A DNA stretch of 64,000 bases from a plasmid, in sequence record NZ_CP106961.1, one strand, 5' to 3'. Below the pieces are notes generated by a model. It did no database searches, was not told the DNA's origin, and saw only the letters and a list, made by a program, of their open reading frames with translations. The stretch's first letter is position 1. Each line of letters begins with the position of its first letter. Of this stretch, positions 1,734 to 53,934 are shown piece after piece. The translations under genes were made by a program, and so were the position numbers.

Positions 1734-2459
1734 TCAGTCCAGGTATCGTTCGTAGTCTCTGACATGCGCAAAGGCATGCTGTTCGAGTTTGTTATCAGCG
1801 GGTGCCGCTGCCCGGAACGCCAGAGAGTTAACAGGGTTGTTATTGATGACCAGCTCGTAATGCAGATGAGGACCGGATGAACGTCCGCTGTTACCGGATA
1901 ACGCAATAGCGTCTCCCCGGGTAACCCTGGCCCCTTTAGTAACGAGTATTTTATTGAGGTGGAGATAGCGAGTTTTAACACCGGCTTTTCCCGTTACTTC
2001 AACAAAATATCCCATGGTACTGTTGTATTCGGCCCGGGTGATTTTTCCGTCGATGACGCTGACTATTTTCGTGTTCATGGGCATGGAATAATCAATGCCA
2101 TTATGGGGACTCACTTTTCCCGATACCGGGTTAAGTCTTGCAGGATTGAAAGGCGAACTGAGTCTTGCTGTGGCCGGTAACGGATAATCGAGACTGCCTT
2201 TCCCGGAAGTATCGGAAAGGTTATAGAACTTTTTATCTGATATACGATACGCCGTGTAATTAAATGAACCGGACGTAAATTTATAGGCCACGACACGTGA
2301 TTTTCCCGCTTTCTTTTGCAGTACGAGTTTTAATGATTCATTTTTTTTCAAATGCCGCAGATTAAACCGGGAAGGCAAGGAGCGCTGAAGAGTAGCGATC
2401 TCGTTCGATTCCAGCCCCGAGCGGGTGGCTGAAAGGTAGGCATTTTCTTTTACGACATC
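1734..2459 (-). pseudogene. pcoG: M23 metallopeptidase pcoG, body of gene severed from its first 4 codons by IS1 composite transposon
   Basis: M23 motifs (HNGIDY, GNSGRSSGPHLHYEL); reading frame stays open upstream of the annotated TTG right to the IS1 boundary at 2459 and resumes on the far side of the composite (10040..10052, ATG TAT TCT ACC) across a 9-bp target duplication. Confidence 0.75.
2451..2459. repeat. target-site duplication TACGACATC (left copy) of IS1 composite transposon
   Basis: matches TACGACATT at 10031..10039 (8/9). Confidence 0.65.
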
Positions 2460-2514
2460 GGTAATGCTGCCAACTTACTGATTTAGTGTATGATGGTGAT
2501 TTTAAGGTGCTTGC

Positions 2515-2790
2515 GTGGCTTCCATTTCCATCAGATGTCCTTCCTGCTCCGCTACTGAAGGCGTGGTGCGTAACGGCAAAAGCACTGCCGGACATCAGCG
2601 CTATCTCTGCTCTCATTGCCGTAAAACATGGCAACTACAGTTCACTTACACCGCCTCTCAGCCCGGTACGCACCAGAAAATCATTGATATGGCCATGAAT
2701 GGCGTCGGATGTCGCGCCAGTGCACGCATTATGGGCGTTGGCCTCAACACGGTTTTACGTCACTTAAAAAACTCAGGCCGCAGTCGGTAA
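2515..2790 (+). CDS. insA: IS1 InsA
   Basis: 91-aa ORF matching the copy B InsA at 8857..9132 (one conservative difference). Confidence 0.85.
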
Positions 2791-3110
2791 CCTGGCGCAT
2801 ACAACCGGGCAGTGATGTGATTGTCTGCGCTGAAATGGACGAACAGTGGGGCTACGTCGGTGCTAAATCACGTCAGCGCTGGTTATTTTACGCATATGAC
2901 AGGATACGGAGGACGGTTGTGGCGCACGTCTTCGGTGAACGCACTCTGGCCACACTGGAGCGTCTTCTGAGCCTGCTGTCGGCCTTTGAGGTCGTGGTAT
3001 GGATGACGGATGGCTGGCCGCTGTATGAATCACGCCTGAAGGGAAAGCTGCGTCTCCGTAGCACGTTATCAGCAAGCGTTACACTCAGCGCATTGAGCGA
3101 CATAACCTGA
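2709..3110 (+). pseudogene. insB: IS1 insB disrupted by 11-bp insertion (premature stop)
   Basis: diverges from copy B InsB after KGKL because of inserted cgtctccgtag. Confidence 0.8.
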
Positions 3111-3259
3111 ATCTGAGACAACATCTGGCAAGGCTGGGACGGAAGTCACTGTCGTTCTCAAAATCGGTGGAGCTGCATGACAAGGTCATCGGGCATTATC
3201 TGAACATAAAACACTATCAGTAAGTTGGAGTCATTACCGGTTTAGTCTATGAATAAACA

Positions 3260-8608: not shown

Positions 8609-8856
8609 TACCTATTTCCTTCAATAATGCACTATTGCCATATCTCCAAGTGACTTCAAGATACAGAATTCAGAGTTGAGTCACTTGGGCATAGTATCCA
8701 ATATATTGGCTAACAACACAGTAAATAAAACTGGGTGGACGTATGAGTGTTTAATTTTCACTCACAAGATTTAGACCTGAACTCAAGACCAAGGAGCGAG
8801 CGGTAATGCTGCCAACTTACTGATTTAGTGTATGATGGTGATTTTGAGGTGCTCCA

Positions 8857-9132
8857 GTGGCTTCCATTTCCATCAGATGTCCTTCCTGCTCCGCTACTGA
8901 AGGCGTGGTGCGTAACGGCAAAAGCACTGCCGGACATCAGCGCTATCTCTGCTCTCATTGCCGTAAAACATGGCAACTACAGTTCACTTACACCGCCTCT
9001 CAGCCCGGTACGCACCAGAAAATCATTGATATGGCCATGAATGGCGTCGGATGTCGCGCCAGTGCACGCATTATGGGCGTTGGCCTCAACACGGTTTTAC
9101 GTCACTTAAAAAACTCAGGCCGCAGTCGGTAA
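8857..9132 (+). CDS. insA: IS1 InsA
   Basis: 91-aa ORF. Confidence 0.85.
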
Positions 9133-9554
9133 CCTCGCGCATACAACCGGGCAGTGATGTGATTGTCTGCGCTGAAATGGACGAACAGTGGGGCTACGTC
9201 GGTGCTAAATCACGTCAGCGCTGGCTGTTTTACGCGTATGACAGGATACGGAGGACGGTTGTGGCGCACGTCTTCGGTGAACGCACTCTGGCCACACTGG
9301 AGCGTCTTCTGAGCCTGCTGTCGGCCTTTGAGGTCGTGGTATGGATGACGGATGGCTGGCCGCTGTATGAATCACGCCTGAAGGGAAAGCTGCACGTTAT
9401 CAGCAAGCGTTACACTCAGCGCATTGAGCGACATAACCTGAATCTGAGACAACATCTGGCAAGGCTGGGACGGAAGTCACTGTCGTTCTCAAAATCGGTG
9501 GAGCTGCATGACAAGGTCATCGGGCATTATCTGAACATAAAACACTATCAGTAA
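9051..9554 (+). CDS. insB: IS1 InsB (made as InsAB' by -1 frameshift)
   Basis: 167-aa ORF typical of IS1. Confidence 0.85.
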
Positions 9555-9569
9555 GTTGGAGTCATTACC

Positions 9570-10030
9570 AAAAACTCAGGCCGCAGTCGGTAACCTCGCG
9601 CATACAACCGGGCAGTGATGTGATTGTCTGCGCTGAAATGGACGAACAGTGGGGCTACGTCGGTGCTAAATCACGTCAGCGCTGGCTGTTTTACGCGTAT
9701 GACAGGATACGGAGGACGGTTGTGGCGCACGTCTTCGGTGAACGCACTCTGGCCACACTGGAGCGTCTTCTGAGCCTGCTGTCGGCCTTTGAGGTCGTGG
9801 TATGGATGACGGATGGCTGGCCGCTGTATGAATCACGCCTGAAGGGAAAGCTGCACGTTATCAGCAAGCGTTACACTCAGCGCATTGAGCGACATAACCT
9901 GAATCTGAGACAACATCTGGCAAGGCTGGGACGGAAGTCACTGTCGTTCTCAAAATCGGTGGAGCTGCATGACAAGGTCATCGGGCATTATCTGAACATA
10001 AAACACTATCAGTAAGTTGGAGTCATTACC
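9570..10030 (+). mobile_element. partial IS1 (3' 461 bp) in tandem with copy B
   Basis: starts abruptly at AAAAACTCAGGCCGCAG (internal IS1 sequence) directly after the copy B end; sequence appears identical to copy B 3' part; truncated insB ORF 9620..10015. Confidence 0.85.
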
Positions 10031-17927: not shown

Positions 17928-17953
17928 CTCCCGTCCGGGAGCGTTTTTTTCCC
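17928..17953 (+). terminator. rho-independent terminator downstream of pcoE
   Basis: GCTCCCG-TCC-GGGAGC followed by GTTTTTTT. Confidence 0.6.
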
Positions 17954-18375
17954 ATATATCAAACTTTAACTCTGAAGAGGTGGAAGTATCTGACCAACAC
18001 TGTCACGTAACGCCAGATAACTACAAAAACACCTTTTTCCTCCTGTAAATTGCAGTTCCTGCCCGCCAGGATAATTATCCCGAACTCTGTCAATGAACAA
18101 TCAAGGGCAATACAAGGGGGATGCAATACACCCCTGTTTTTCGGGAAATAAGCGAGGATTGACCATTTCTTGTTAATCCCTGAAATGTTCCTTGTTCTTT
18201 ATGCGGTTAGATGCGGATATTGAATTTACTGAGATCCCGCGTAATGGCATACCCAAAGCACTCCTCAAAACGAAACGCAGCCTGCCACGACGAATGTTGA
18301 CGCAAAACATCATCACAGTGAGTAGGTATAGTTCGTGTTCGATATTGGCTTTAGTGAACTGCTATTGATATTCAT

Positions 18376-18413
18376 GGGGTCCGCTTGGAAAACGGAAAAT
18401 ATCCTACGTTAAG
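18376..18413 (+). repeat. 38-bp terminal inverted repeat (IR-L) of Tn3-family transposon
   Basis: GGGGTCCGCTTGGAAAACGGAAAATATCCTACGTTAAG; 37/38 identical to reverse complement of 30305..30342; Tn3-like GGGG...TAAG ends. Confidence 0.8.
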
Positions 18414-18504
18414 CCTGTTTCTTTAGCTGGCATTACAAAAAGCGAGCGTCTGCATGGTACAGACAGACACCCGAATACGATAAAAATGAGACGAAAAAAA
18501 CAGG

Positions 18505-18930
18505 TTACTTAACCCGCTTCCCCGTTTCGTCAATGACCTTTTCGCCGTCCTCTTTGGTAAACGCTCCTTTCTGACCTTCAGGTAGAATATCCAGCACTAT
18601 TTCTGAAGGGCGGCAAAGACGAGTGCCAAGCGGCGTAACGACTACCGGCCGATTAATCAGGATCGGATGTTGAAGCATAAAATCAATCAACTGCTCATCA
18701 CTGAATTTCTCTTCATCAAGGCCCAGGTGTTCATAAGGCTCAACATTCTTACGCAGCAATGCACGCACCGTAATTCCCATATCTGAAATAAGTTTAATCA
18801 GATCATCACGGGTCGGTGGCGTATCGAGATAATAAATAATGGTCGGTTCGTTACCGCTGTTACGGATCATCTCCAGCGTGTTGCGTGAAGTGCCGCAGGC
18901 CGGGTTGTGATAGATGGTAATGTTGCTCAT
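18505..18930 (-). CDS. arsC: arsenate reductase (glutaredoxin-coupled) ArsC
   Basis: 141 aa, MSNITIYHNPACGTSRNTLEMIR with catalytic Cys12. Confidence 0.9.
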   Translation of the reverse strand: MSNITIYHNPACGTSRNTLEMIRNSGNEPTIIYYLDTPPTRDDLIKLISDMGITVRALLRKNVEPYEHLGLDEEKFSDEQLIDFMLQHPILINRPVVVTPLGTRLCRPSEIVLDILPEGQKGAFTKEDGEKVIDETGKRVK

Positions 18931-18942
18931 ATCTTTATCTCA

Positions 18943-20232
18943 TTACAAAGTGATGGAAAGCCGCAACGCCAGCGCGGCCAGAGTGACAAACAGCACGGGC
19001 AGAGTCATGATAATGCCGGTGCGGAAGTAATAACCCCAGGTGATCGTTATATTTTTCCGGGCAAGCACATGCAGCCAAAGCAGGGTTGCCAGACTGCCAA
19101 TCGGGGTGATTTTCGGGCCTAAATCGCAGCCAATCACGTTGGCATAAATCATTGCCTCTTTGACGACGCCAGTCGCCGTACTCCCGTCAATCGACAGCGC
19201 GCCAATCAGCACCGTCGGCATATTGTTCATCACCGACGACAGGAACGCGGTCAGGAAGCCGGTGCCGAACGTTGCTGCCCATAACCCCTTTTCTGCCAGC
19301 AGGTTCAGTACACCAGACAGATACTCCGTGAGCCCGGCATTGCGCAGGCCATAGACCACCAGGTACATGCCCAGCGAAAAAATCACGATCTGCCATGGCG
19401 CACTGCGCAGGACTTTCCCTGTGTTGATGCCATGACCTCTTTTCGCCACGATAAACAGTACTGCTGCGCCAGCAGCTGCTATCGCGCTGACAGGGATCCC
19501 CAGCGGCTCCAGAACGAAGAAACCGACAAGCAGCAATAACAGGACAATCCAGCCCGCCCTGAACGTTGCCGCATCCTTTATCACACTGGCAGGCGTCTTC
19601 AGCAGCGAAACGTCATACGTTGCCGGAATATCCCTGCGGAAGAAGAGATGCAGCATGATCAGCGTGGCCGCAATCGCTGCCGCATCCACGGGGATCATAA
19701 CGGAGGCGTACTGCGTAAAGCCCAGATCGAAGAAGTCCGCCGAGACGATATTCACCAGGTTAGAAACAATGAGTGGCAGGCTGGCCGTATCTGCAATAAA
19801 TCCTGCAGCCATGACAAAGGCCAGTGTCGTGCCCTGGCTGAACCCCAGTGCGAGCAGCATCGCAATCACAATCGGCGTCAGGATCAGCGCGGCGCCATCA
19901 TTGGCGAACAAAGCAGCAACAGCGGCACCGAGCAAGACTATCCAGGTGAACAGCAGGCGGCCACGTCCGTTACCCCAGCGGGAGACGTGCAGTGCGGCCC
20001 ACTCAAAGAAGCCGGACTCATCGAGCAGCAGGCTGATGATGATGACCGCAATAAATGCCGCTGTCGCGTTCCAGACGATATTCCAGACAACGGGAATATC
20101 AGCGATATGGATGACACCGGTTCCCAGCGCCAGCACAGCCCCGATACTCGCGCTCCAGCCAATACTCAGGCCTCTGGGTTGCCAGATCACCAGTACCAGC
20201 GTCAGTAAAAATATACTCCCTGCCAAAAGCAT
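18943..20232 (-). CDS. arsB: arsenite efflux pump ArsB
   Basis: 429 aa from [11 protein letters not shown]; ORF-track start 20310 is a spurious 26-codon extension. Confidence 0.9.
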
Positions 20233-20276
20233 CTCAGACCCCATCATATATGATTTTGTAAATATGTTTTCCTGCC

Positions 20277-20597
20277 TCAGCAGGAGGTGCAGGCTGATTT
20301 GTCCAGCCATTCACGTACATCCTCGCGCAGACACTGCCAGGTCGTCGTGATTGTCTCTGCTGCCCACGCCGGAATATGGGGTGACAGACGATAGTGGATC
20401 CATTTGCCTTCCCGACGGTCAAGAACCAGATCAGCCTCGCGAAGGATAGCCATATGTCGCGAAATTTTGGGCTGCGATTCGGAGGTGGCAACGCAGATAT
20501 CGCAGACGCACAATTCTCCGGACTCCCGGAGAAGCATGACGATGGCTAGCCGTGTTTCATCCGACAGGATTTTGAAAAGCTGAACAGGTTGTAGCAT
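20277..20597 (-). CDS. arsR: ArsR/SmtB-family arsenite-responsive repressor
   Basis: ELCVCDIC metal site and HTH; 106 aa. Confidence 0.9.
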
Positions 20598-20682
20598 TTT
20601 TCACTCCGTTCCCTTTAGAATACACATATGTTAGATCATATATATTAACTTTAAAATCACCTGTTCTCTCCGGAGGAGAAAA

Positions 20683-21381
20683 ATGGAACAATTTCCAGCC
20701 CTGAATACTGACTGTTTTGATCAACATATTGCCGAACGTCTGCACCTGCAGGAGCCCCCACGGATTCTGATCCTGTATGGCTCAGTAAGGGAGCGCTCCT
20801 ACAGTCGCTTTGCCGCGGAGGAAGCAGGTCGCCTGCTGACGGCGATGGGCGCGGAGGTGAAATTCTTTAACCCCTCCGGTTTACCCCTGCCGGATGATGC
20901 CCCGGATACGCACCCTAAAGTCTCCGAGCTACGCGGGCTGGTCAGATGGTGTGACGGGATGGTGTGGAGCTCGCCGGAACGGCACGGGGCTATGAGCGCG
21001 GTGATGAAGGCGCAGATCGACTGGATACCGTTGAGTGAAGGCGCGGTTCGTCCTTCGCAGGGCAAGACACTTGCAGTGATGCAGGTTTGCGGCGGTTCGC
21101 AGTCCTTCAATGCCGTGAACCAGATGCGCATTCTGGGCCGCTGGATGCGGATGTTCACAATTCCCAACCAGTCCTCGGTGGCGAAAGCCTGGCAGGAATT
21201 TGATGAGAACGGAAGGATGAAGCCGTCCTCATGGTACGACCGTATCGTAGATGTCGCAGAGGAGTTGTTTAAAATTACGTTGCTGCTCAGGGGACAAACC
21301 AGCTACCTTGCAGATCGCTACAGCGAACGAAAAGAGAGTCATCAGGAACTTTCGTACCGCGTCAATCAGGAAAAAATATAA
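20683..21381 (+). CDS. arsH: NADPH-dependent FMN reductase ArsH, divergent from arsR
   Basis: 232 aa, [15 protein letters not shown] flavodoxin-like motif. Confidence 0.85.
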
Positions 21382-21509
21382 CGCCTTCTGATCGTATAAA
21401 TACACACCATGAGCGTTTTCACAAAGTCTCCTTCTGCCAGGCAGCGGATAATCTTACATGTGTCTGTCGTTTTCAGAAGACGGCAGACCGGACTAAAACC
21501 ATAGGCATA

Positions 21510-21815
21510 TCATTTGCCTTCAACAAGTTCACCGAACAGCTCTTTCACCCTGTTTCTGGCGTCCGTTAGCGCTATGTGCCCTTGTCCGGTGATTTCATAT
21601 ACTCGCCGGATTCGTCGACCGGCCTGAACATGTCGTGAAGTGAGATACCCCTTCTTTTCCATACCGTGCAGCATCGGATACAGGGTACCCGGGCTGAGTT
21701 GATAACCGTGGTGTCGCAATTCCTCAATGATGCCCAGACCAAAGACGGGTTCTTTGGCTGCATGATGCAGGATGTGCAAACGGATCATCCCGCCGTAAAG
21801 ATCTTTGTCGGTCAC
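21510..21815 (-). CDS. PadR-family transcriptional regulator downstream of chrA
   Basis: 101 aa winged HTH, typical chrA-padR module. Confidence 0.7.
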   Translation of the reverse strand: MTDKDLYGGMIRLHILHHAAKEPVFGLGIIEELRHHGYQLSPGTLYPMLHGMEKKGYLTSRHVQAGRRIRRVYEITGQGHIALTDARNRVKELFGELVEGK

Positions 21816-21825
21816 GCCCGGAACC

Positions 21826-23031
21826 TCACAGTGCTAAACTCAACAACCAACCCGCAACACCGCAACTCACTACGACCAGCCACGGCGGCAGTTTCCAGAA
21901 CATCAGAGCGACCAGTGCCACAAGGGCAAGGCCGAAATCTTGCGGAGCGAGAACTGCGCTCGTCCATACTGGTTGATAGAGAGCTGCCAGCAGAAGGCCA
22001 ACTACGGCTGCATTAATACCCTGCAACGCTGCTTGTGTACGGATATTGCGGCGCAGACTTTCCCAGAACGGCAATGCTCCCACAATCAGAAGGAAGGACG
22101 GTGCGAAAATTGCCAGCAGACAAACCAGACCACCCAGCCAGCCAGAAGGCACCTGGTTCATCGAAGCCCCGAGAAAGGCTGCAAAAGTGAACAACGGTCC
22201 AGGAACGGCCTGGGCAGCGCCGTAGCCAGCCAGGAATGTATCAGTGCTGACCCAGCCAGAAGGAACGACTTCAGTCTGCAGTAATGGCAGCACGACATGC
22301 CCGCCACCAAAAACCAGTGATCCGGTCCGGTAGAAAGTTTCTACCATTAACAGCGTCGGATTTGGGAATATCGCCGTCAGCAATGGTAACCCTGTCAGTA
22401 GCACAAAGAACAGCGTGAGCCAGAACAATCCGACGCGACGCCGTATTGAAACGGGCAGCGGATCATGTACCGTCGTCTGCTGAGGTTTGAACAGTAACAT
22501 GCCAGTGACAGCCGCAGTGACGATTACTCCCACCTGTCCCCAGGCCGATGGCACAAGAAGCACAAAGCAGGTTGCCACTGCCATGACAGTAATACGCGGT
22601 ATATCCGGGCAAAGATTTCGGGCCATGCCCCATACAGCTTGCGCGACCACCGCAACGGCTACCACTTTCAGCCCATGCAATACACCAGAGGGCATCACAT
22701 CCCCGTAACTGGTCATCCCCAGCGCAAACAGGATCAGTGCAACTGCTGACGGTAGCGTGAAGCCGGCCCATGCTGCCAGCGCCCCGGTATAACCGGCCCG
22801 GGACAGCCCGAGCGCTATACCAACCTGACTGCTTGCTGGTCCCGGAAGGAACTGGCACAGAGCGACCAAATCTGCATAGCTGCGCTCGGTCAACCACTGC
22901 CGTCGCGTCACAAACTCATCGCGGAAGTAACCCAGATGGGCAATTGGGCCGCCGAAGGATGTCAGGCCAAGTCGGAAGAAAATCAGAAAGACAGCCCAGG
23001 GGCTGTGATCATTCCTGGCAGTATCGTTCAT
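21826..23031 (-). CDS. chrA: chromate efflux transporter ChrA
   Basis: 401 aa, duplicated CHR domains, FRLGLTSFGGPIAHLGYFR motif. Confidence 0.85.
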   Translation of the reverse strand: MNDTARNDHSPWAVFLIFFRLGLTSFGGPIAHLGYFRDEFVTRRQWLTERSYADLVALCQFLPGPASSQVGIALGLSRAGYTGALAAWAGFTLPSAVALILFALGMTSYGDVMPSGVLHGLKVVAVAVVAQAVWGMARNLCPDIPRITVMAVATCFVLLVPSAWGQVGVIVTAAVTGMLLFKPQQTTVHDPLPVSIRRRVGLFWLTLFFVLLTGLPLLTAIFPNPTLLMVETFYRTGSLVFGGGHVVLPLLQTEVVPSGWVSTDTFLAGYGAAQAVPGPLFTFAAFLGASMNQVPSGWLGGLVCLLAIFAPSFLLIVGALPFWESLRRNIRTQAALQGINAAVVGLLLAALYQPVWTSAVLAPQDFGLALVALVALMFWKLPPWLVVVSCGVAGWLLSLAL

Positions 23032-23206
23032 GGTCAGATCCTGATTGCTGGTTTTATTGGCTATTATAATCGAATTTCGTTATCGAAATTCGATTATAAT
23101 AGCCACTGCTCCCTGTGGATAGAATGATGTTTCATGCTTTCCAGATGTTTACTTCAAGAACAGTTTCAACTGCCTGGCCAGTTATGGGCTTTATTCACAT
23201 TCAGTA

Positions 23207-23785
23207 TTATTGCTGTCCTGCTTTTACCCGGAGTATGGTTTGCCGGGTGGTATTAAATTCTCTGGCAACCGCACTGATACTGGCCCCGGAATTAAGGCGC
23301 TCTGACACTATTTTTTTTTGCTCCTCGCTCAAGATGGGCGGACGACCGAAGCGTTTCCCGGCTGATCTTGCCCGAGAAATCCCTGAATGTGTGCGTTCAA
23401 TCAGCAGATCCCTCTCAAACTCAGCCACAGCTGAAATCACCTGCATCGTCATTCTCCCGGCAGCGCTGGTCAAATCAACACCTCCGAGCGCCAGGCAGTG
23501 AACACGAATATCTGACGAAGCCAGTTGCTCAACAGTTTTTCTGATATCCATGGCATTACGCCCAAGACGATCCAGCTTGGTGACTATCAGCACATCACCA
23601 TTTTCCATGCGATCAAACAGCCGGATAAATCCGGGACGTTCGCTGGCAGCAACCGAACCACTTATATGTTCCTCAATCAGTCGCTGGGGTCTGATGGCAA
23701 AACCCGCCGCTTCAATTTCCCTTCGCTGATTCTCGGTGGTTTGCTCAAGAGTCGAAACCCGGCAGTAAGCAAAAACTCGTGACAT
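23207..23785 (-). CDS. tnpR: serine recombinase / resolvase TnpR
   Basis: [15 protein letters not shown] catalytic Ser region, C-terminal HTH; ORF-track start 23860 is an extension. Confidence 0.8.
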
Positions 23786-23944
23786 AGGAAACTTTCCGTA
23801 CGAAATGGATGTCCGAATTATAACGTATGTACGAAACAAATTTCGCTGACTTTCGGACATATTGTTTGCGAGGCGTACGAAACCGACCGGTTTCGGTCAG
23901 TGTAAAGCGATAACCAAAACGAACTATATGCAGAGGAAGCATTT
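23786..23944. promoter_or_regulatory. putative res site / divergent tnpR-tnpA promoter region
   Basis: 159-bp intergenic region between divergent tnpR and tnpA (position only). Confidence 0.35.
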
Positions 23945-24400
23945 ATGCCACGGAGACAAATACTCAGCAGTGAAGAAAAAGAGCGCTTGCTGGTTGTGCC
24001 GGATGATGACGTTCTTCTGGCGCGCATGTGTTTTTTGAGTGAACATGACCTCGCTCTTATTAATAAACGCCGCAGACCTGCAAATCGCCTGGGCTTTGCT
24101 GTTTTACTCTGTTATTTGCGAGGGTCGGGGTTTCCTCCCGACAAAAATATTTCCCCTCACGACGGGGTTGTTTCCCGGCTTGCGGCTCATTTGAAACTTC
24201 AGCCTGATTTGTGGGCCGAGTATGCATCAAGAGAGGTCACCCGCTGGGAGCATCTGGCTGAACTATACCGCTATCTGGAATTATCCCCTTTCAACCGGGC
24301 GCTGCAAAAAACCTGCATTCGCCACCTTTATCCCCACGCTATGCGGACAGACAAAGGTTTTTTGCTTGCGGAAGAAATGCTCTCCTGGCTTCACAATAAG
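23945..24400 (+). pseudogene. tnpA: Tn3-family transposase tnpA, N-terminal 152 codons (DUF4158-like region), interrupted by ISL3 element
   Basis: MPRRQILSSEEKERLLVVPDDD start typical of Tn3 TnpA; frame WLHNK continues as NVIFPSVDV at 27781 when the insertion is removed. Confidence 0.85.
24392..24400. repeat. direct repeat CACAATAAG flanking ISL3 element (left)
   Basis: identical 9-mer at 27772..27780. Confidence 0.75.
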
Positions 24401-24487
24401 GGGTAAGCGGATTAAATGGTTGATCTTACCTTTGCATGAGAGTGAGACAGACCGGCATCTCATCGGATTATCTGGTTGATGCTTCAC

Positions 24488-24895
24488 CTACTGCTGGTGC
24501 ATGTTTCCTTCGCTAATTCCAGCAAGAACCCCACACGCCTCAACTTCCCGGTCATCGTTGCAACTCGCTCTCAGTGAAACGAGTTGTTTCTCAAGCGCTT
24601 GCAGAGCGGTTATCTGCGACCGCACATGAGAGATGTGATCATCGAGCAAGGCGTTGACGGCGGTACAAGGCTGATGAGGGTCGTCCTGATAGCTCTGTAG
24701 TTCGTGAATCTCAGCCAGTGACAGGCCCAGGATTCTGCAGCGACGGATGAAGGCCAGCCCCTCACCATGCTTCTCGGTATAGACACGGTAACCGTTGTCC
24801 TGCCGATCAGGCGGCGGCAACAAGCCCTGCTGTTCATAGAAGCGGATCGTCTGTGTTTCGACCCCTACCAACTGCGCCAACTGACCAATGCGCAT
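24488..24895 (-). CDS. MerR-family metal-responsive regulator (ZntR/CadR/PbrR-like)
   Basis: MRIGQLAQLVGVETQTIRFYEQQGLLPPP HTH and C-terminal Cys residues; divergent from CDF gene. Confidence 0.8.
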   Translation of the reverse strand: MRIGQLAQLVGVETQTIRFYEQQGLLPPPDRQDNGYRVYTEKHGEGLAFIRRCRILGLSLAEIHELQSYQDDPHQPCTAVNALLDDHISHVRSQITALQALEKQLVSLRASCNDDREVEACGVLAGISEGNMHQQ

Positions 24896-24969
24896 CAGCC
24901 TCCTCCCCAACGGATTCTTTACTCTATTGACCTTATAGTAGCTTTATAGTTTTAAATGGTACCACAACA

Positions 24970-25887
24970 TTGTTCAAGTGGAGTCGTATCATGAGCAAAT
25001 CCTGTGGTGGCGCCTGTGGCGGTGATGCAACGTCCGCAGCGGATACCGATATACAGGCCTCCTCCGAGGCGCCAGGGAGATGGGTCAGTGTTTATGCCGT
25101 GCCGAAGATGGACTGTCCATCAGAAGAACGAATGATTCGCCTAGCCCTGAACGGCTTTGAGGAGATTCGGGCGCTGTCCTTCGACTTGTCGAACCGCCGG
25201 CTGAAGGTCGTGCATGACGGCGAGGTCGAGCCCGTCACCTCGAAACTGAAGACCTTGGGGCTAGGCGCCTCGCTTCAGGAAACCGTCGCTGCAAATCCGG
25301 AGACCATCAAGGCCGCCGAGTTTTCGGCAGCTTCTGCTAAGCAAGAATCCGGGACCCTGCGCTGGTTGCTCGGCATCAATGCACTTCTGTTCGTGGTGGA
25401 AATGACTGCCGGTCTGATCGCCCAGTCCACCGGCCTGATTGGAGAATCCCTGGACAATTTTGCCGATGCGGCGGTGTACGGGCTTGCCCTTTATGCGGTT
25501 GGACATAGCGTGAAAATGCAGGTACGTGCCGCGCATCTTGCTGGTGTACTGCAACTGATCTTGGCTGTGGGCGTGCTCGTAGAGGTGGTGAGACGCTTTG
25601 TATTCGGTAGTGAGCCTGAATCGCTGGTGATGATGGCTATCGCATTCGTCGCATTGATTGCCAATACCAGTTGTCTGCTGCTCATATCCAAACATCGGGA
25701 AGGCGGGGCGCACATGAAGGCAAGCTGGATATTCTCGGCCAACGACGTGGTGATCAACCTGGGGGTCATCACCGCCGGCGCCCTGGTCGCGTGGACCGGT
25801 TCCAATTATCCGGATCTGATTATCGGCACCATCGCGGGGGGCATTGTACTTAACGGTGCCAGACGCATTTTGGCGTTGAAGGGTTAA
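24970..25887 (+). CDS. cation-diffusion-facilitator-like membrane transporter with Cys/Gly-rich N-terminal extension
   Basis: 6 predicted TM with CDF-like ESLDNFADA, N-terminal SCGGACGG and MDCPSEE metal-binding-like segment; no C-terminal cytoplasmic domain. Confidence 0.65.
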   Translation: MFKWSRIMSKSCGGACGGDATSAADTDIQASSEAPGRWVSVYAVPKMDCPSEERMIRLALNGFEEIRALSFDLSNRRLKVVHDGEVEPVTSKLKTLGLGASLQETVAANPETIKAAEFSAASAKQESGTLRWLLGINALLFVVEMTAGLIAQSTGLIGESLDNFADAAVYGLALYAVGHSVKMQVRAAHLAGVLQLILAVGVLVEVVRRFVFGSEPESLVMMAIAFVALIANTSCLLLISKHREGGAHMKASWIFSANDVVINLGVITAGALVAWTGSNYPDLIIGTIAGGIVLNGARRILALKG

Positions 25888-25890
25888 ATA

Positions 25891-26403
25891 ATGCTCATTA
25901 TTGGCAAAAAGCTCTCGCCGTATGCCCTATTGTCCATATCGGGCCTGCTGGCAGCGTCTGATCAGGCTGTAAAGTGGCTGGTGCAGCAATCAATGGCCTA
26001 TGGCGAGTATGTTTCGGTGACCCCGTTCTTTAACTGGGTGCACCTATGGAACACCGGTGCCGCATTCAGTCTTTTTGCGAATGGTGGAGGCTGGCAGCGC
26101 TACTTTTTTATCGGAATCGCGGTAGTGGTCTCGATTTTTCTGATCAAGCTGATCCTTGAAAATCGTCATAAAGGAGAAGCCATCGCTTACAGTCTTATCC
26201 TCGGTGGCGCCATGGGCAACCTGATTGACCGGGTCTTTCGCGGCTATGTTGTGGATTCCTTTGATTTCTATTGGCGAGACTGGCATTGGCCGGCCTTCAA
26301 CCTGGCTGATATTGCAATTGTCCTCGGTGCCTTACTTTTCGTTTCCAGCAGCTTGTTGGGTAAAAAAGCAAACACCAATGCCGAGCCGGATGGATCTGAC
26401 TGA
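25891..26403 (+). CDS. lspA: lipoprotein signal peptidase II
   Basis: 170 aa, conserved NxGAAFS and DxxDF(NLAD) motifs. Confidence 0.85.
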   Translation: MLIIGKKLSPYALLSISGLLAASDQAVKWLVQQSMAYGEYVSVTPFFNWVHLWNTGAAFSLFANGGGWQRYFFIGIAVVVSIFLIKLILENRHKGEAIAYSLILGGAMGNLIDRVFRGYVVDSFDFYWRDWHWPAFNLADIAIVLGALLFVSSSLLGKKANTNAEPDGSD

Positions 26404-26424
26404 CACCTACGCCTATACAACACC

Positions 26425-27714
26425 ATGACCGAACTTCCCGACAACATCCTTCACCTGCCGCAATACCAAGTACTGGGCTGCAAATCAACCGACGACGAAA
26501 TGCACTTCCAGGTGGACGTGCCCGATCCCATCGCCTGCGAGGAATGCGGCGTGCAGGGTGAGTTCGTACGGTTCGGCAAGCGTGACGTTCCCTATCGTGA
26601 TCTGCCCATCCACGGCAAGCGGGTCACTCTCTGGGTGGTCCGCCGCCGATACACCTGCCGGGCCTGCAAGACAACATTCAGGCCCCAGCTACCGGAGATG
26701 GTGGACGGATTCCGTATGACACTGCGGCTGCATGAGTACGTGGAGAAGGAATCCTTCAACCACCCCTACACCTTTGTGGCGGCACAGACCGGCCTGGACG
26801 AGAAGACGGTGCGCGACATCTTCAACGCCCGCGCCGAGTTCCTGGGGCGCTGGCACCGCTTCGAGACGCCCCGCATCCTGGGCATTGACGAGCTATACCT
26901 GAACAAGCGCTACCGCTGCATTCTGACCAACATTGAGGAGCGAACCCTGCTCGACCTGCTGGCCACCCGCCGCCAGGACGTGGTGACCAACTACCTGATG
27001 AAGCTGAAAGACCGGCAGAAGGTCGAGATCGTCAGCATGGACATGTGGAACCCCTACCGGGCAGCGGTCAAGGCTGTGCTGCCCCAGGCCCGTATCGTGG
27101 TCGATAAGTTCCATGTGGTGCGCATGGCCAACGATGCCCTAGAGAGAGTGCGCAAGGGCCTCAGAAAGGAGCTGAAACCGTCCCAGAGCCGGACTCTCAA
27201 GGGAGACCGGAAAATCCTGCTGAAACGCGCTCACGAAGTCTCAGACCGGGAGCGCCTCATCATGGAGACCTGGACAGGCGCGTTCCCGCAACTGCTGGCC
27301 GCCTACGAGCACAAGGAGCGCTTCTACGGCATCTGGGACGCCACCACACGGCTCCAGGCAGAAGCCGCCCTGGACGAGTGGATAGCCACCATCCCGAAGG
27401 GCCAAAAGGAAGTCTGGAGCGATCTGGTCAGGGCAGTGGGAAACTGGCGCGAAGAGACCATGACCTACTTCGAGACGGACATGCCCGTCACCAACGCTTA
27501 CACGGAGTCCATCAACCGACTGGCCAAGGACAAGAACCGTGAAGGGCGCGGTTACTCCTTCGAGGTGATGCGGGCACGAATGCTCTACACCACGAAGCAC
27601 AAGAAGAAGGCACCGACTGCGAAGGTCTCTCCTTTCTACAAGAAAACCATCGGTTACGGACTGCCGGACTTCGCAGAGGAACTCAACTACGGAGTCGATC
27701 TATCAACCATCTGA
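26425..27714 (+). CDS. tnpA: ISL3-family transposase
   Basis: 429 aa, N-terminal zinc ribbon CEECG..CRAC, DDE region. Confidence 0.85.
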   Translation: MTELPDNILHLPQYQVLGCKSTDDEMHFQVDVPDPIACEECGVQGEFVRFGKRDVPYRDLPIHGKRVTLWVVRRRYTCRACKTTFRPQLPEMVDGFRMTLRLHEYVEKESFNHPYTFVAAQTGLDEKTVRDIFNARAEFLGRWHRFETPRILGIDELYLNKRYRCILTNIEERTLLDLLATRRQDVVTNYLMKLKDRQKVEIVSMDMWNPYRAAVKAVLPQARIVVDKFHVVRMANDALERVRKGLRKELKPSQSRTLKGDRKILLKRAHEVSDRERLIMETWTGAFPQLLAAYEHKERFYGIWDATTRLQAEAALDEWIATIPKGQKEVWSDLVRAVGNWREETMTYFETDMPVTNAYTESINRLAKDKNREGRGYSFEVMRARMLYTTKHKKKAPTAKVSPFYKKTIGYGLPDFAEELNYGVDLSTI

Positions 27715-27771
27715 GGGTGGTATCAGATTGATGGGGTGAAGGTGCCCCATCAACCATTAAATCCGTATACC

Positions 27772-27780
27772 CACAATAAG
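27772..27780. repeat. direct repeat CACAATAAG flanking ISL3 element (right)
   Basis: pairs with 24392..24400. Confidence 0.75.
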
Positions 27781-30309
27781 AATGTCATTTTCCCCTCAGT
27801 TGATGTCATTGAGCGGACCCTGGCTGAAGCAGCAACGCTTGCAGACAGGGCGGTTTTTTCTGCGCTTACCGCGCAGCTTGAACCAGGGCACAAAGCGGCA
27901 CTGGACCGTCTGCTGAGATCTGAGGGTGAGCAACCCTCACGGCTGGCCTGGCTGCTCCAGCCTCCGGGAAAAATTAATGGCAAAAATGTCCTGCAACATA
28001 TCGACCGGTTAAATGCGATTGAGGCGCTGGCACTGCCTGACGGTATTGCGCTTTCCGTTCACCAGAACCGGCTCCTGAAACTGGCACGCGAAGGCAGGAA
28101 AATGAGTAGCCGGGACCTGGCAAAATTCACGGATGTTCGCCGTTATGCCTCGCTGGTTTGTGTTATATCGGAAGCCAGGGCCACCCTGACTGACGAAGTT
28201 ATTGATCTGCACGAGCGTATTCTGGGCAGTCTGTTCAGCAGGGCAAAACGCACGCAAGCCGAACGGCTTCAGCAAACGGGAAAGCTGATTCAGAGTAAGC
28301 TGAAGCAATACGTTACCATCGGGCAGGCATTGCTTAACGCCAGAGAGTCTGGTGAAGATCCCTGGGCCGCAATAGAAGACGTCCTTCCCTGGCAGGAATT
28401 TATCAACAGCGTGGAAGAGACGCGCTTCCTGTCACGTAAGGACAACTTTGACCCGTTGCATCTGATCACAGAAAAATACAGTACGCTGCGTAAATACGCC
28501 CCCCGGATGCTGTCTGCGTTGCAGTTCAGGGCTGCACCCGCCGCATTGCAGCTCAGTGACGCGCTGGACACCGTCAGAGAGATGTATCGAAAACAACTCC
28601 GAAAAGTACCGCCTTCCGCGCCAACCGGGTTCATCCCGCAAAGCTGGAGAAAGGCTGTGATCACTCCCACCGGCATTGATCGAAAATATTACGAATTTTG
28701 CGTGCTGAATGAGCTGAAGGGAGCCTTACGTTCTGGTGACATCTGGGTAAAGGGATCACGCCGCTACCGGAATTTCGATGATTATCTGATCCCGTCTGAC
28801 GATTTTGAAAAATCACTCCGTGATAATCAGCTATCCCTTGCCATTCCGACCGATTGCCATGAGTACATCAAGAACCGTATGACACTTCTGGCATCGCGCC
28901 TGGAGGAAGTGAATGCGATGGCGCTGGTCGGTGATTTACCTGATGTTGATATATCGGATAAAGGCGTGAAAATAACCCCGCTGGATAATAGTGTCCCTTC
29001 AGCAGCATCCCCTTTTGCCGATTTGGTTTATGGCATGCTGCCTCACCCTAAAATTACTGAAATTCTGGATGAAGTGGACGGCTGGACCGGTTTTACCCGC
29101 CATTTCACGCATCTTAAAAATAAACACGTCAGACCAAAAGACAGAAAGTTGTTACTGACCACCATCCTGGCCGATGGCATCAATCTGGGGCTGACGAAAA
29201 TGGCCGAATCCTGTCCGGGAGTGACAAAATCGTCACTGGAGGGCATTCAGGCCTGGTACATCAGGGATGAAACATATTCAGCCGCGCTGGCTGAGCTGGT
29301 TAATACTCAGAAACAGCGGCATCTGGCTGCATTTTGGGGCGATGGTACAACGTCTTCGTCTGACGGGCAGAACTTTCGGGTGGGGAGTCACGGGCGTTAT
29401 GCGGGTCAGGTCAATCTGAAATACGGGCAGGAACCAGGCGTGCAGATTTACACGCATATCTCGGATCAATACAGCCCATTTTACACCAAAGTGATCAGTC
29501 GCGTGCGCGACTCCACCCACGTACTTGACGGTCTGCTATACCACGAAAGTGATCTGGAAATTACAGAGCATTACACTGATACCGCTGGTTTTACGGAGCA
29601 TGTTTTCGCGCTGATGCATCTGCTCGGATTCGCTTTTGCCCCAAGGATCCGGGATCTTCACGACAAGCGGCTTTTTATTAAGGGAAAGGCTGAGCGTTAT
29701 CCGGGACTTCAATCTGTGATAGCCACAACACCACTGAATCTTAAAGACATTGAGACGCACTGGAATGAGGTACTTCGCCTCGCAAGCTCGATAAAACAGG
29801 GGACTGTTACCGCATCGCTCATGATGAAAAAACTGGCCAGTTATCCTAAACAAAATGGCCTTGCAAAGGCATTGAGGGAAATCGGACGCATCGAACGGGC
29901 ACTGTTTATGCTGGACTGGTTTCGCGATCCATCACTGCGCCGACGCGTACAGGCTGGGCTGAATAAAGGTGAGGCCCGCAATGCGCTTGCACGAGCGGTC
30001 TTTATGCACCGGTTGGGTGAGATCAGAGATCGGGGGCTGGAGAATCAGAGCTACCGGGCCAGTGGTCTGACATTGCTGACTGCGGCGATCTCCCTGTGGA
30101 ATACGGTATATATAGAAAGAGCCATAGATTCCCTGAGACGAAAAGGGATCCCAATTAATGAGCAACTGATTTCTCATTTGTCCCCTCTGGGATGGGAGCA
30201 CATCAATCTGAGTGGGGATTACGTCTGGCGGACAAACCTTAAGCTGGGGCAGGGTAAATACAGTTCATTACGCTCAGTGGATAGTGGTCTGTACAAAAAA
30301 CAGGCTTAG
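27781..30309 (+). pseudogene. tnpA: Tn3-family transposase tnpA, C-terminal ~842 codons
   Basis: long ORF homologous along its length to Tn3-family TnpA (DDE region); ORF-track start 27736 lies inside the ISL3 right end, creating a hybrid start. Confidence 0.85.
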
Positions 30310-30342
30310 CGTAGGATATTTTCCGTTTTCCAAGCGGACCCC
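30305..30342 (-). repeat. 38-bp terminal inverted repeat (IR-R) of Tn3-family transposon
   Basis: reverse complement GGGGTCCGCTTGGAAAACGGAAAATATCCTACGCTAAG; overlaps tnpA stop. Confidence 0.8.
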
Positions 30343-30720
30343 TATCTCTACGTTGCCGGTTTCATGTCTGGCGTGAGAAGCTTGCATAGCAAGCTTCTCT
30401 GATCCGCGTCCTCATTTATAGACTGCTGCCTATAAAACTGCGCTAGTGTTTTTCGTCATAGTAACAAACGAATTAATACAACCAGATTCGCACTTCCTTT
30501 ACGTTTTTTAGCTCAATGAAGCCCACCGCGAGCACTTCCAATGGTCAATAAAAATTGGTCACTCCTTGAGGCTTTTTCGTAAAATAGCTCTGATTGCTTC
30601 GGCGGCAACCTGTTCGACGTCTGATTCGGACGCACAGAATGAAATGCCGAGCCGGATTTTCTTACCCAGCACGAAAAAATTGTCAGCAAAGAAGTACTAT
30701 GTGGCCTGGGAACATAAGAC

Positions 30721-31032: not shown

Positions 31033-31532
31033 GGATTATGAGTTTAACTTGCAAGTTAGACGGACACTTTTCTTTTTGGTTAAAGCCATCCTCAGGGTGA
31101 GCAATGTCCTTTTAGTCCTAATGCATTGATATTTATTATTAATTTACCCTTACATCCAAGTCGGATAGACATATTTTTTGTCTGATCTGCAGGCATCTGT
31201 AAAAAAACTCTTAACTTGGACGGACAAATTACTTATAGAGCAATTCAAAACCGCCGCAGAAAGTGCCCCCTAGCATTTATTACGTAATTGATTCTAAATC
31301 TAAATGAGTCTGCGGGTTTATCACCAGAAGTTTGACCATTACAATAGAATAAATGTCAAACTGAGGTAACTTATGAACAAACATACCACAACAGAACTAG
31401 AGCTGAGCGCAAAAGTGACGCTGGCAGATTTTCAACTAAGTCTTCTGAAAAGGATTAATAACATCGCGGTCTCACTGAATCGCCACGGGTTTAACAGACA
31501 CCTCAGAGTCATTTAAGATGGCTTAAAGAGAG

Positions 31533-31817
31533 GTGCCCATGAGCGGTAAGCGTTATCCCGAAGAGTTTAAAACTGAAGCAGTCAAACAGGTTGTTGATCG
31601 CGGTTATTCTGTTTCCAGCGTTGCAACACGTCTCGATATCACCACCCACAGCCTTTATGCCTGGATAAAGAAGTACGGTCCGGATTCTTCCACTAATAAA
31701 GAACAGTCAGATGCTCAGGCCGAGATCCGCCGTCTCCAGAAAGAGCTGAAACGGGTTACCGACGAACGGGACATATTAAAAAAAGCCGCGGCGTACTTCG
31801 CAAAGCTGTCCGACTGA
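31533..31817 (+). CDS. IS3-family transposase OrfA (HTH)
   Basis: 94 aa with HTH and leucine zipper. Confidence 0.85.
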   Translation: MPMSGKRYPEEFKTEAVKQVVDRGYSVSSVATRLDITTHSLYAWIKKYGPDSSTNKEQSDAQAEIRRLQKELKRVTDERDILKKAAAYFAKLSD

Positions 31818-31873
31818 GGTACGTCTTTATCCGTGACAACTCCTGTTGCTGGCCTGTTCGCCTGCTCTGTCGG

Positions 31874-32686
31874 GTGCTGGATGTTCATCCCAGTGGTTTT
31901 TACGCCTGGCTTCAGCAGCCGCATTCACAACGCCATCAGGCAGACCTGAGACTGACAGGACAGATTAAACAGTTCTGGCTGGAATCGGGATGCGTCTATG
32001 GTTATCGCAAAATCCATCTGGATCTGCGTGACAGCGGGCAACAGTGCGGAGTAAACAGAGTCTGGAGACTGATGAAACGTGTCGGAATAAAGGCTCAGGT
32101 CGGATACCGAAGCCCGCGGGCACGTAAAGGCGAGGCCAGTATCGTGTCACCCAACAGGCTCCAGCGACAGTTCAATCCGGATGCTCCTGATGAGCGTTGG
32201 GTAACGGACATAACCTACATCAGGACCCACGAAGGCTGGCTGTATCTTGCCGTTGTTGTTGATCTGTTCTCACGCAAAATTATCGGCTGGTCCATGCAAT
32301 CCCGAATGACAAAGGACATTGTCCTGAACGCACTGCTGATGGCTGTATGGCGGCGTAATCCCGAAAAACAGGTGCTGGTTCATTCGGATCAGGGCAGTCA
32401 GTACACAAGCCATGAGTGGCAGTCGTTCCTGAAATCACACGGCCTGGAGGGTAGCATGAGCCGTCGCGGTAACTGCCATGATAATGCGGTTGCAGAAAGT
32501 TTTTTCCAGTTGTTGAAACGTGAACGGATAAAGAAAAAGATCTACGGAACGCGGGAAGAAGCCCGCAGTGATATTTTTGATTACATCGAAATGTTTTATA
32601 ACAGTAAGCGTCGGCATGGTTCTAGCGAACAGATGTCACCGACAGAATATGAAAACCAGTATTATCAACGGCTCGGAAGTGTCTAG
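31874..32686 (+). CDS. IS3-family transposase OrfB (DDE), expressed as OrfAB by -1 frameshift
   Basis: 270 aa with DDE motifs (WVTDITY, HSDQGSQYTS, E). Confidence 0.85.
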   Translation: MLDVHPSGFYAWLQQPHSQRHQADLRLTGQIKQFWLESGCVYGYRKIHLDLRDSGQQCGVNRVWRLMKRVGIKAQVGYRSPRARKGEASIVSPNRLQRQFNPDAPDERWVTDITYIRTHEGWLYLAVVVDLFSRKIIGWSMQSRMTKDIVLNALLMAVWRRNPEKQVLVHSDQGSQYTSHEWQSFLKSHGLEGSMSRRGNCHDNAVAESFFQLLKRERIKKKIYGTREEARSDIFDYIEMFYNSKRRHGSSEQMSPTEYENQYYQRLGSV

Positions 32687-32709
32687 ATTATCCGTGGCGA
32701 TTCACACTG

Positions 32710-33557: not shown

Positions 33558-33809
33558 CCATTCACTAATGGCTTTCCATCCATCAATTACGGTCCACAGT
33601 CCATCTTTGATGGCTTTCTATTCATCAATTACGGCCCACAGTCCATCTTTGATGATTTTCTACTCATCAATTACGGCCCACAGTCCATCTTTGATGGCTT
33701 TCTACACTTCAATCACAGTCCACAGTCCATCTTTGGTGGCTTTCTACTCATCAATTACGGTCCACAGTCCATCTTTGGTGGCTTTCCTAATCATTAACCA
33801 CGGTTCACA
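33558..33809. repeat. six tandem 42-bp direct repeats (iteron/centromere-like array)
   Basis: units ATGGCTTTCTACTCATCAATTACGGTCCACAGTCCATCTTTG, each junction forms CCATC-TTT-GATGG palindrome; last unit degenerate; 129-aa ORF over it is a translation artefact. Confidence 0.85.
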
Positions 33810-33939
33810 ATCCATATTTGATAATGTTATAAACCGTAAAGGAACTTCACGAATTTACGACAGAAATATTTATGGAGATCCACTTTACATCATTTAACCG
33901 ATGGAGTTTTTAGACGCTATGTTAAACATCCAAGTAATT

Positions 33940-35470: not shown

Positions 35471-35665
35471 AACACTTTTCCTAGAAAAGTTAAACATAGT
35501 CATTTCATCCATGTTTAACTTTTCTAGGAAAAGTTAAACATGAGCAATTCATGTATGTTTAACTTTTTGGGTAAAAGTTAAACATATCGCAACCTTTTAT
35601 GTGGGCCTTTTACAGAAAAAGTCAAACATGGTGCGTGTAAATTATGTTTTTCTTTTATCCAAAAA
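35471..35665. repeat. array of AAAAGTTAAACAT 13-mers (5 direct, 2 inverted) including perfect 18-bp inverted repeat 35471..35519
   Basis: CCTAGAAAAGTTAAACAT-N13-ATGTTTAACTTTTCTAGG, then copies at ~35518, 35546 (inverted), 35563, 35607, 35651. Confidence 0.7.
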
Positions 35666-52409: not shown

Positions 52410-52685
52410 ATGCACAGGGAAATGAAGATGAGGGCATTACTGGCGGAGCTGGTTGATATTATTGCGGAGCAGCATAAGTCTGAAAAGGAAGTGATTATTC
52501 AGACTGAAGCACTGAATCTGGTTGTAGCTGCCATTCTCATGCGACTGGATGACAGCGTTCGTATGCAACTGAAAAGTGAGATTGATGAGGCTTTCGCTTC
52601 ACAGCATGGAGGTCACCCCTCATTTATGGATGAAACGCACATACTCCAGCGTGCTGTGGAAGAACTGTTTAATTTTCATAGGTGA
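52410..52685 (+). CDS. hypothetical protein whose stop codon TGA is supplied by the first bases of IS3-family copy 2
   Basis: 91-aa ORF ending at 52683..52685 = TGA of the IS end TGAATCGCC. Confidence 0.4.
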   Translation: MHREMKMRALLAELVDIIAEQHKSEKEVIIQTEALNLVVAAILMRLDDSVRMQLKSEIDEAFASQHGGHPSFMDETHILQRAVEELFNFHR

Positions 52686-53911: not shown

Positions 53912-53934
53912 GATAGTAGTATGTACAAAAGGGC

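Follow-up and report, generated by a model that had tools for sequence, protein, structure and literature searches.

Tn2503, an arsHRBC transposon of 6,769 bp, is carried by each of the four plasmids of Yersinia pestis Java 9. Its relatives include Tn2502 of Y. enterocolitica plasmid pYVe227 and the transposition module of Tn2501, and Tn2502, which has a defective tnpA, is complemented in trans by Tn2501 (PMC3316555). A relative of these elements, carrying genes for arsenic (ars) and chromate (chr) resistance, was located at nt 18376–30342 of a 64,000-nt stretch of plasmid DNA from record NZ_CP106961.1, hereafter the window, to which all positions refer. The first-pass annotation had described this interval as a Tn3-family transposon of about 12 kb. 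Comparison with related plasmids indicates that the interval is very likely a non-autonomous recombinant unit transposon of the Tn2501/Tn2502/Tn2503 lineage, in which two arms of different origin were joined at the resolution site res, most likely by the resolvase TnpR, and into which the insertion sequence (IS) ISPpu12 was subsequently inserted.

The interval is bounded by 38-bp terminal inverted repeats (IRs). IR-L, GGGGTCCGCTTGGAAAACGGAAAATATCCTACGTTAAG, and the reverse complement of IR-R were identical at 37 of 38 positions, the sole mismatch being T/C at position 34. With up to 3 mismatches allowed, these were the only two matches in the window, and 0 of 100 dinucleotide-preserving shuffles contained one. 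The IRs start with GGGG on the outside and finish with TAAG on the inside, and, if one gap is allowed, the two ends remain alike for about 48 bp. The tnpR and tnpA genes are divergent, and the tnpA stop codon TAG (nt 30307–30309) lies within IR-R. The 37/38 match, the divergent genes and the overlap of IR-R with the tnpA stop had already been described in the first-pass annotation. These observations, together with a serine resolvase, a DDE_Tnp_Tn3 domain and ars and chr cargo supported by Pfam, place the element in the Tn3 family. With a serine resolvase gene and an adjacent putative res region containing repeated half-sites, it would also possess the resolution module of that family.

In TnpA (944/994 residues, 95% identity), TnpR (171/193, 89%), IRs (either end of Tn2503 differs from the window IR-L by 1 mismatch) and divergent gene arrangement, the element belongs to the lineage of Tn2503. 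Both have IRs of the family type, a divergent tnpR-res-tnpA module and homologous ArsH, ArsR, ArsB and ArsC proteins (82–93% identity), and Tn2503 is flanked by the 5-bp duplication TTTTG. The cargo order, however, is IR-arsH/arsR-B-C in Tn2503 versus IR-arsC-B-R/arsH in the window, that is, the orientation of the ars block with respect to tnpR is reversed, and the window element additionally has padR-chrA between arsH and tnpR, ISPpu12 in tnpA and a right arm from another family member. In view of the inverted ars block and the added padR-chrA, it is therefore a relative rather than a copy of Tn2503. Tn2502 resembles it in having a dead tnpA, and the window element would likewise depend on a helper. 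The 38-bp GGGG...TAAG ends are also common to the Tn21 subgroup. In Tn21, tnpR and tnpA are co-directional, whereas in Tn3 and gamma-delta they are divergent with res between them. The window element does not have the arrangement of the Tn21 subgroup, in which res lies upstream of tnpR, since its genes are divergent and the putative res region is situated between them.

The arm junction between tnpR and tnpA

The left arm has its closest counterpart in an 8.59-kb ars-chr transposon, here called canonical (NZ_CP068235.1, NZ_CP011133.1 and NZ_CP104661.1), which occurs without ISPpu12 in plasmids of Citrobacter, Klebsiella, Leclercia and Raoultella. Both share the gene order arsC-arsB-arsR/arsH-padR-chrA-tnpR and 98–100% identity from IR-L to the dyad described below, but the canonical transposon has a "type 2" tnpA arm only 90% identical to that of the window and no ISPpu12. 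The window IR-L, the same as that which bounds the canonical copies L002, L003, L004 and L085, arrived with the ars-chr arm. Of the full interval of 11,967 bp, 8,587 bp remain when ISPpu12 and its 8-bp duplication are subtracted.

Alignment with L003, the canonical copy of Leclercia YZ30, revealed 0 mismatches in the aligned nt 23000–23902, TnpR being 100% identical, but to the right of the junction nt 27771–30342 were 90% identical (256 mismatches or gaps), with the divergence reaching IR-R. Conversely, the sulP-usp transposon of Leclercia adecarboxylata pE61_002 (NZ_CP042495.1; L007) showed 0 mismatches in the tnpA parts compared base by base (nt 23875–24399 and 27771–30342) versus 78 mismatches in nt 23197–23874. 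Its right arm is the same as that of the window from nt 23875, whereas sulP and a gene for a universal stress protein are found on its left arm, its TnpR is 91% identical and its left flank is AACCC. Identity with L003 up to nt 23902 and with L007 from nt 23875 therefore places the junction in the 28-bp interval 23875–23902, which substantiates the earlier suspicion of recombination between elements. The element is thus a hybrid of two Tn3-family copies, with the ars-chr arm to the left of the dyad and the arm of another family member to the right. Since repeated transposon copies are a classic source of misassembly, collapse of two similar copies into an assembly chimera was also considered; the same junctions were nevertheless present in complete plasmids from independent assemblies, namely pLEC-5e18, pLEC-000f, which lacks ISPpu12, and NZ_CP042507.1, the IRs of which contain IS4321, and this makes an artifact hardly credible.

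The junction falls on a 26-bp dyad, CGTACGAAACCG-AC-CGGTTTCGGTCA. Alignment of the intergenic tnpR-tnpA regions of 26 distinct relatives displayed conserved blocks separated by variable spacers, the dyad being almost invariant while the spacers on either side of it varied. Three res subsites were assigned by inspection, the tnpA-proximal dyad being the one that is well supported. In five pairs (window/L003, window/L007, L002/L019, L007/L023 and L019/L059), the sequences go from 0–1 to 14–40 mismatches exactly across the dyad. From this mosaic structure, we infer that the dyad is the res crossover site (site I). As for its centre (nt 23886–23887), AC was found in most relatives including the window element, whereas the reverse complement GT was found in Tn2503 (L008), L011 and L052.

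RecA-dependent homologous recombination between related transposons could also have joined the arms, as the two lineages are about 90% identical over tnpR-res-tnpA, a 28-bp identical tract spans the junction, and the breakpoint between L003 and L002, with the last mismatch at nt 23809, lies in the res region yet outside the dyad. However, 27 identical tracts of 28 bp or more are common to the parental lineages, the longest being 205, 113 and 65 bp, and five independent switches nonetheless map to the same 26–28-bp dyad, the 28-bp junction tract being among the shortest. This distribution renders homologous recombination rather unlikely and favors site-specific exchange by TnpR.

Insertion history of the two ends

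The 5-bp flanks, TTCAT (nt 18371–18375) and TATCT (nt 30343–30347), form no direct repeat, in agreement with the first-pass annotation, and the 5-bp duplication typical of the Tn3 family is thus absent because the two ends stem from different insertions. NZ_CP107263.1, which belongs to the same replicon cluster, contains an empty target, GTGATGC-TATCT-TTACG. Seven sibling plasmids are homologous to the DNA left of this site, but only as far as X-TATCT exactly, and in pLEC-5e18 X-TATCT abuts an IR-L followed by genes for a helix-turn-helix (HTH) regulator and a major facilitator superfamily (MFS) transporter and by IS1A, about 57 kb away from the IR-R/TATCT junction. The empty site and the separated X-TATCT/IR-L therefore indicate that the TATCT duplication belongs to an older insertion, the ends of which are now apart, and that the window IR-R is its right end. 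The same IR-R/TATCT junction and backbone are present in pE61_002, with ISPpu12 at the same position. Plasmid pENTE01 was tried as the intact form of the original HTH-MFS/type-1 transposon and rejected, since its cargo is different, although the right arm is 97.9% identical.

The junction of IR-L with DNA downstream of pcoE is complete in one PLSDB record, pLEC-5e18, and is found in a second with IS4321 in the IR. Complete sequences of both the left and the right junctions occur only in pLEC-5e18, the right one also in pE61_002, and two further records contain the same junctions with IS4321 in the IR. Over nt 18000–30700, pLEC-5e18 is 100% identical to the window, and the same 12-kb structure is thus already public. 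Only two PLSDB records contain the 300 bp to the left of IR-L, and pco homology in other plasmids stops at about nt 17950–18062. A segment of about 310 bp (nt 18063–18375), from the shared sequence downstream of pcoE to IR-L, was observed in only two or three PLSDB plasmids.

If one intact 12-kb transposon had been inserted as a unit and its flanks altered by later mutation or adjacent deletion, the 37/38 match of the IRs and the full set of Tn3-family parts would be accounted for. Against this stand the split tnpA, the partner of the right junction, X-TATCT/IR-L, lying about 57 kb off with different cargo, the 90% identity of the right arm to the canonical ars-chr transposon versus 98–100% of the left, the sibling plasmids with the same right arm and junction but another left arm, and the restriction of the junctions to the few records mentioned above. 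Such a history is very improbable. Thus, the 12-kb interval described by the first-pass annotation is real, but it is an 8,587-bp transposon with a nested ISPpu12 and a split tnpA, which had been overlooked; it cannot be taken as one transposed unit, since the two IRs were delivered by two separate insertion events. It is better described as a hybrid of two insertions crippled by an IS than as a transposon of demonstrated mobility.

Plasmid pLEC-000f, which shares its sampling site with pLEC-5e18, carries the same hybrid at the same place in the backbone without ISPpu12, its tnpA containing a single ACAATAAG and no IS. This suggests that ISPpu12 came after the arm exchange. The plasmid was damaged later: IS1 removed arsC and IR-L, tnpA has a 577-bp deletion, and 610 bp to the right of IR-R have given way to an IS3-family fragment. 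The most parsimonious course of events would begin with insertion of a family member with a "type-1" tnpA at TATCT in a Leclercia plasmid backbone (rep_cluster_2218). Exchange at the 26-bp dyad closest to tnpA, with two res sites most likely recombined by TnpR, would then have substituted the arsCBR-arsH-padR-chrA-tnpR arm of the canonical element for the tnpR-side arm of this family member, in an assumed intermediate containing both transposons, e.g. a cointegrate or a fused plasmid. This exchange would also have brought in DNA upstream of the ars-chr arm and placed the pco/sil segment beside IR-L. ISPpu12 would subsequently have been inserted into codon 152 of tnpA, and, in the line of pE61_002, a second exchange at the same dyad would have led to the sulP-usp arm. 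Three left arms, HTH-MFS, ars-chr and sulP-usp, are thus tied to one TATCT insertion.

Several points weigh against exchange by TnpR and against this order. Site I of Tn3 and gamma-delta is 28 bp in length, whereas the window dyad is 26 bp, and its central dinucleotide AC is non-palindromic and differs from that of Tn3 and gamma-delta. Cutting by TnpR at the dyad is presumed from sequence rather than from biochemistry. Resolvases of the Tn3 type normally recombine sites only when these are direct repeats within a single molecule, and one therefore has to postulate an intermediate in which the two transposons were directly oriented. The reciprocal product of the exchange was not found, and the left arm at X-TATCT in pLEC-5e18 runs into IS1A, not into res. 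For the left junction, neither an empty site nor a TTCAT-flanked partner was found in PLSDB. In the window itself, there was no second copy or reciprocal hybrid, just two IRs and one tnpA, and no further Tn3-family tnpA.

Cargo genes and ISPpu12

The features of the interval are listed in Table 1. The cargo genes should confer arsenate reduction and arsenite efflux under the control of ArsR, ArsH activity, and chromate efflux by ChrA, accompanied by a PadR-family regulator. Alleles of chrA-padR with at least 95% identity were found in about 133 PLSDB plasmids. Assignment of chrA-padR to the integron-associated chrA-orf98 unit was rejected, as DNA identity was about 72% and no Tn21-type IR was situated next to chrA.

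Table 1 Features of the ars-chr interval and the inserted ISPpu12
Feature	Position (nt)	Strand	Evidence or remark
IR-L, 38-bp terminal inverted repeat of ars-chr (left) arm	18376–18413	+	Outer flank TTCAT
arsC, glutaredoxin-type arsenate reductase	18505–18930	-	Pfam ArsC, E 4e-23; Prokaryotic Genome Annotation Pipeline (PGAP) name on identical pLEC-5e18 DNA
arsB, arsenite efflux permease	18943–20232	-	Pfam ArsB, E 7e-155; PGAP
arsR, ArsR-family repressor	20277–20597	-	Pfam HTH_5, E 2e-15; PGAP
arsH, NADPH-dependent FMN reductase family, divergent from arsRBC	20683–21381	+	Pfam FMN_red, E 6e-33; annotated ArsH
padR-family regulator, downstream of chrA	21510–21815	-	Pfam PadR, E 1e-18; PGAP
chrA, chromate efflux transporter	21826–23031	-	Pfam Chromate_transp, E 3e-82, two stretches
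tnpR, serine resolvase, 192 aa	23207–23785	-	Pfam Resolvase and HTH_7; N-terminal motif YCRVST
Putative res region between tnpR and tnpA	23797–23899		Alignment of relatives; conserved blocks with YGTMCGAAA / TTTCGKACR half-sites
26-bp dyad, arm junction, inferred res crossover site	23874–23899		Conserved block nearest tnpA
tnpA 5' fragment, codons 1–152	23945–24400	+	DUF4158 N-terminal domain
8-bp target duplication ACAATAAG of ISPpu12	24393–24400 and 27773–27780
ISPpu12 (ISL3 family), 3,372 bp	24401–27772	+	Terminal IRs 21/24; collinearity break, junctions, PGAP "ISPpu12 family", Pfam DDE_Tnp_ISL3
cadR/merR-like gene of ISPpu12	24488–24895	-
Cation diffusion facilitator (CDF) transporter gene of ISPpu12	24991–25887
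lspA of ISPpu12	25891–26403
ISL3 transposase gene of ISPpu12	26425–27714
tnpA 3' fragment	27781–30309	+	Joined in silico to 5' fragment, intact 994-aa Tn3-family transposase
IR-R, 38-bp terminal inverted repeat of resident (right) arm	30305–30342	-	Outer flank TATCT

ISPpu12 was first found on the TOL plasmid pWW0. The window copy is like it in length, IRs, ISL3 transposase, the three passenger genes and an 8-bp target duplication, and by these features, as distinct from a base-by-base alignment with the pWW0 copy, nothing notable differs. Length and IRs agree with the values of 3372 and 21/24 in the ISfinder table reproduced in PMC3056050. Alignment to uninterrupted copies from other plasmids breaks at nt 24399/27771, with a 9-bp overlap. 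The predicted CadR-like regulator, CDF transporter and LspA would represent additional cargo.

As it stands in the window, tnpA is split at codon 152, within the DUF4158 region, and the element is therefore not autonomous. When rejoined, the open reading frame encodes 994 aa with no internal stop and possesses DUF4158 and a full-length DDE_Tnp_Tn3 domain (1–389/389, E 2e-148). The IRs, tnpR and res look intact; movement would thus be plausible only with a related TnpA supplied in trans, by analogy with Tn2502, whereas the element can still take part in recombination at res.

Relatives, plasmid surroundings and significance

In a family scan with one genome per species, relatives were found at 76 loci, and the cargo on the tnpR side varies widely among relatives. 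Perfect AT-rich 5-bp duplications beside IRs of the same type were found in Tn2503, L013, L014, L018, L020, L021, L025, L052, L063 and others; in all, such duplications flank Tn2503, the ars-chr copy of NZ_CP107263.1 and more than 15 other relatives. The copy in NZ_CP107263.1, an internally deleted form of the canonical transposon, is situated 890 bp from the empty site in inverted orientation, has a right arm 99.8% identical to the canonical "type 2" arm and is flanked by a perfect TTATA duplication; the canonical element therefore does transpose from IR to IR, and the same kind of element with a duplication, for which the first-pass annotation had proposed a search, does exist elsewhere. The complete canonical copies L002, L003, L004 and L019, on different plasmids, all lack a 5-bp duplication, their flanks being AAGAT/AATTT, ATTAT/AAAGT, ATAGT/TTCAG and CAGTT/TATGA, respectively, which suggests that rearrangement at or around the ars-chr transposon is frequent. 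Deletions or IS elements have truncated the ars-chr copies H95, H96 and H81. Among 5,426 complete E. coli genomes, none had a locus with 80% or more of the element, and no published Tn number for the ars-chr transposon was found in the papers searched in full text, only Tn2501, Tn2502, Tn2503 and the unrelated "chrA-orf98 unit".

Insertion of IS5075 in a 38-bp Tn21-type IR has been described (PMC5034289). Similarly, IS4321 (IS110 family) was observed in the 38-bp IRs, 22 bp from the outer end, in L005 (at both ends), L006, NZ_CP042507.1 and NZ_OQ821056.1, indicating that the IRs of this family serve as IS4321 targets. In Candidatus Symbiopectobacterium endolongispinus, L043, L044, L047 and L058 are IR-bounded derivatives of about 3.05 kb containing only a 5'-truncated tnpA (residues ~222–992), one of them with a perfect ATTTA duplication; they look like a non-autonomous deletion derivative multiplied in the genome of an insect symbiont. 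TnpA relatives with 58–81% identity were found on contigs assigned to Candidatus Cardinium hertigii (L040 and L070; Bacteroidota endosymbiont) and Solidesulfovibrio alcoholivorans (L074; Desulfovibrionales), which may reflect horizontal transfer or contamination.

The position of ars and chr genes next to the pco island had been regarded as notable. This proximity is not unusual, as two or more other plasmids have the ars-chr transposon only a few kb from sil/pco genes, and it is only the exact junction that is rare. In L089 (Phytobacter) and L090 (Enterobacter kobei), an ars-chr element or ars remnant is located a few kb from pco/sil, beside a diguanylate cyclase gene, and in many Klebsiella plasmids the IR-L end of the ars-chr element abuts an EAL-domain gene.

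Elsewhere in the window, an IS3-family IS of about 1.23 kb (nt 31479–32704) interrupts a gene for a DNA-binding protein, of which pLEC-5e18 and pE61_002 have intact copies, and a second copy of the IS is located at nt 52684–53922, the pLEC-5e18 counterpart of which holds a group II intron (ltrA) absent from the window. In view of these differences, the window plasmid is a close relative of pLEC-5e18 rather than identical to it. IS1-related repeats were present at nt 2459–3238 and 8801–10030, with a 461-bp partial duplication at about nt 9570 relative to pLEC-5e18. Near mobI, the backbone contains two arrays that are iteron-like or partition-site-like: a 42-bp unit is repeated in tandem 6 times (87% matches) at nt 33568–33822, and a 44-bp unit 2.6 times at nt 35474–35586.

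The practical benefit lies chiefly in annotation, where the interval is to be entered as an 8.59-kb ars-chr transposon of the Tn2503 lineage, hybrid at res and with ISPpu12 in tnpA, not as a 12-kb autonomous transposon. Elements of this kind and arm exchange at res were both known already, and no long-standing question is opened; the locus is nevertheless a clean, base-resolved example of cargo-arm exchange at res in Tn3-family elements. If AC/GT is the overlap dinucleotide of strand exchange, elements with AC and those with GT might be unable to swap arms. It is a tentative and somewhat doubtful idea that the crippled right arm (res, tnpA::ISPpu12 and IR-R) acts, in this family of Leclercia plasmids, as a fixed docking point for repeated resolvase-mediated swaps of cargo arms together with tens of kb of DNA, with the AC/GT difference perhaps barring exchange between the two groups. 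The arm exchange links determinants for arsenic, chromate, copper/silver and cadmium/zinc-type resistance on one plasmid, and thereby bears on how metal resistances are co-selected in Enterobacterales from the environment and from hospital plumbing.

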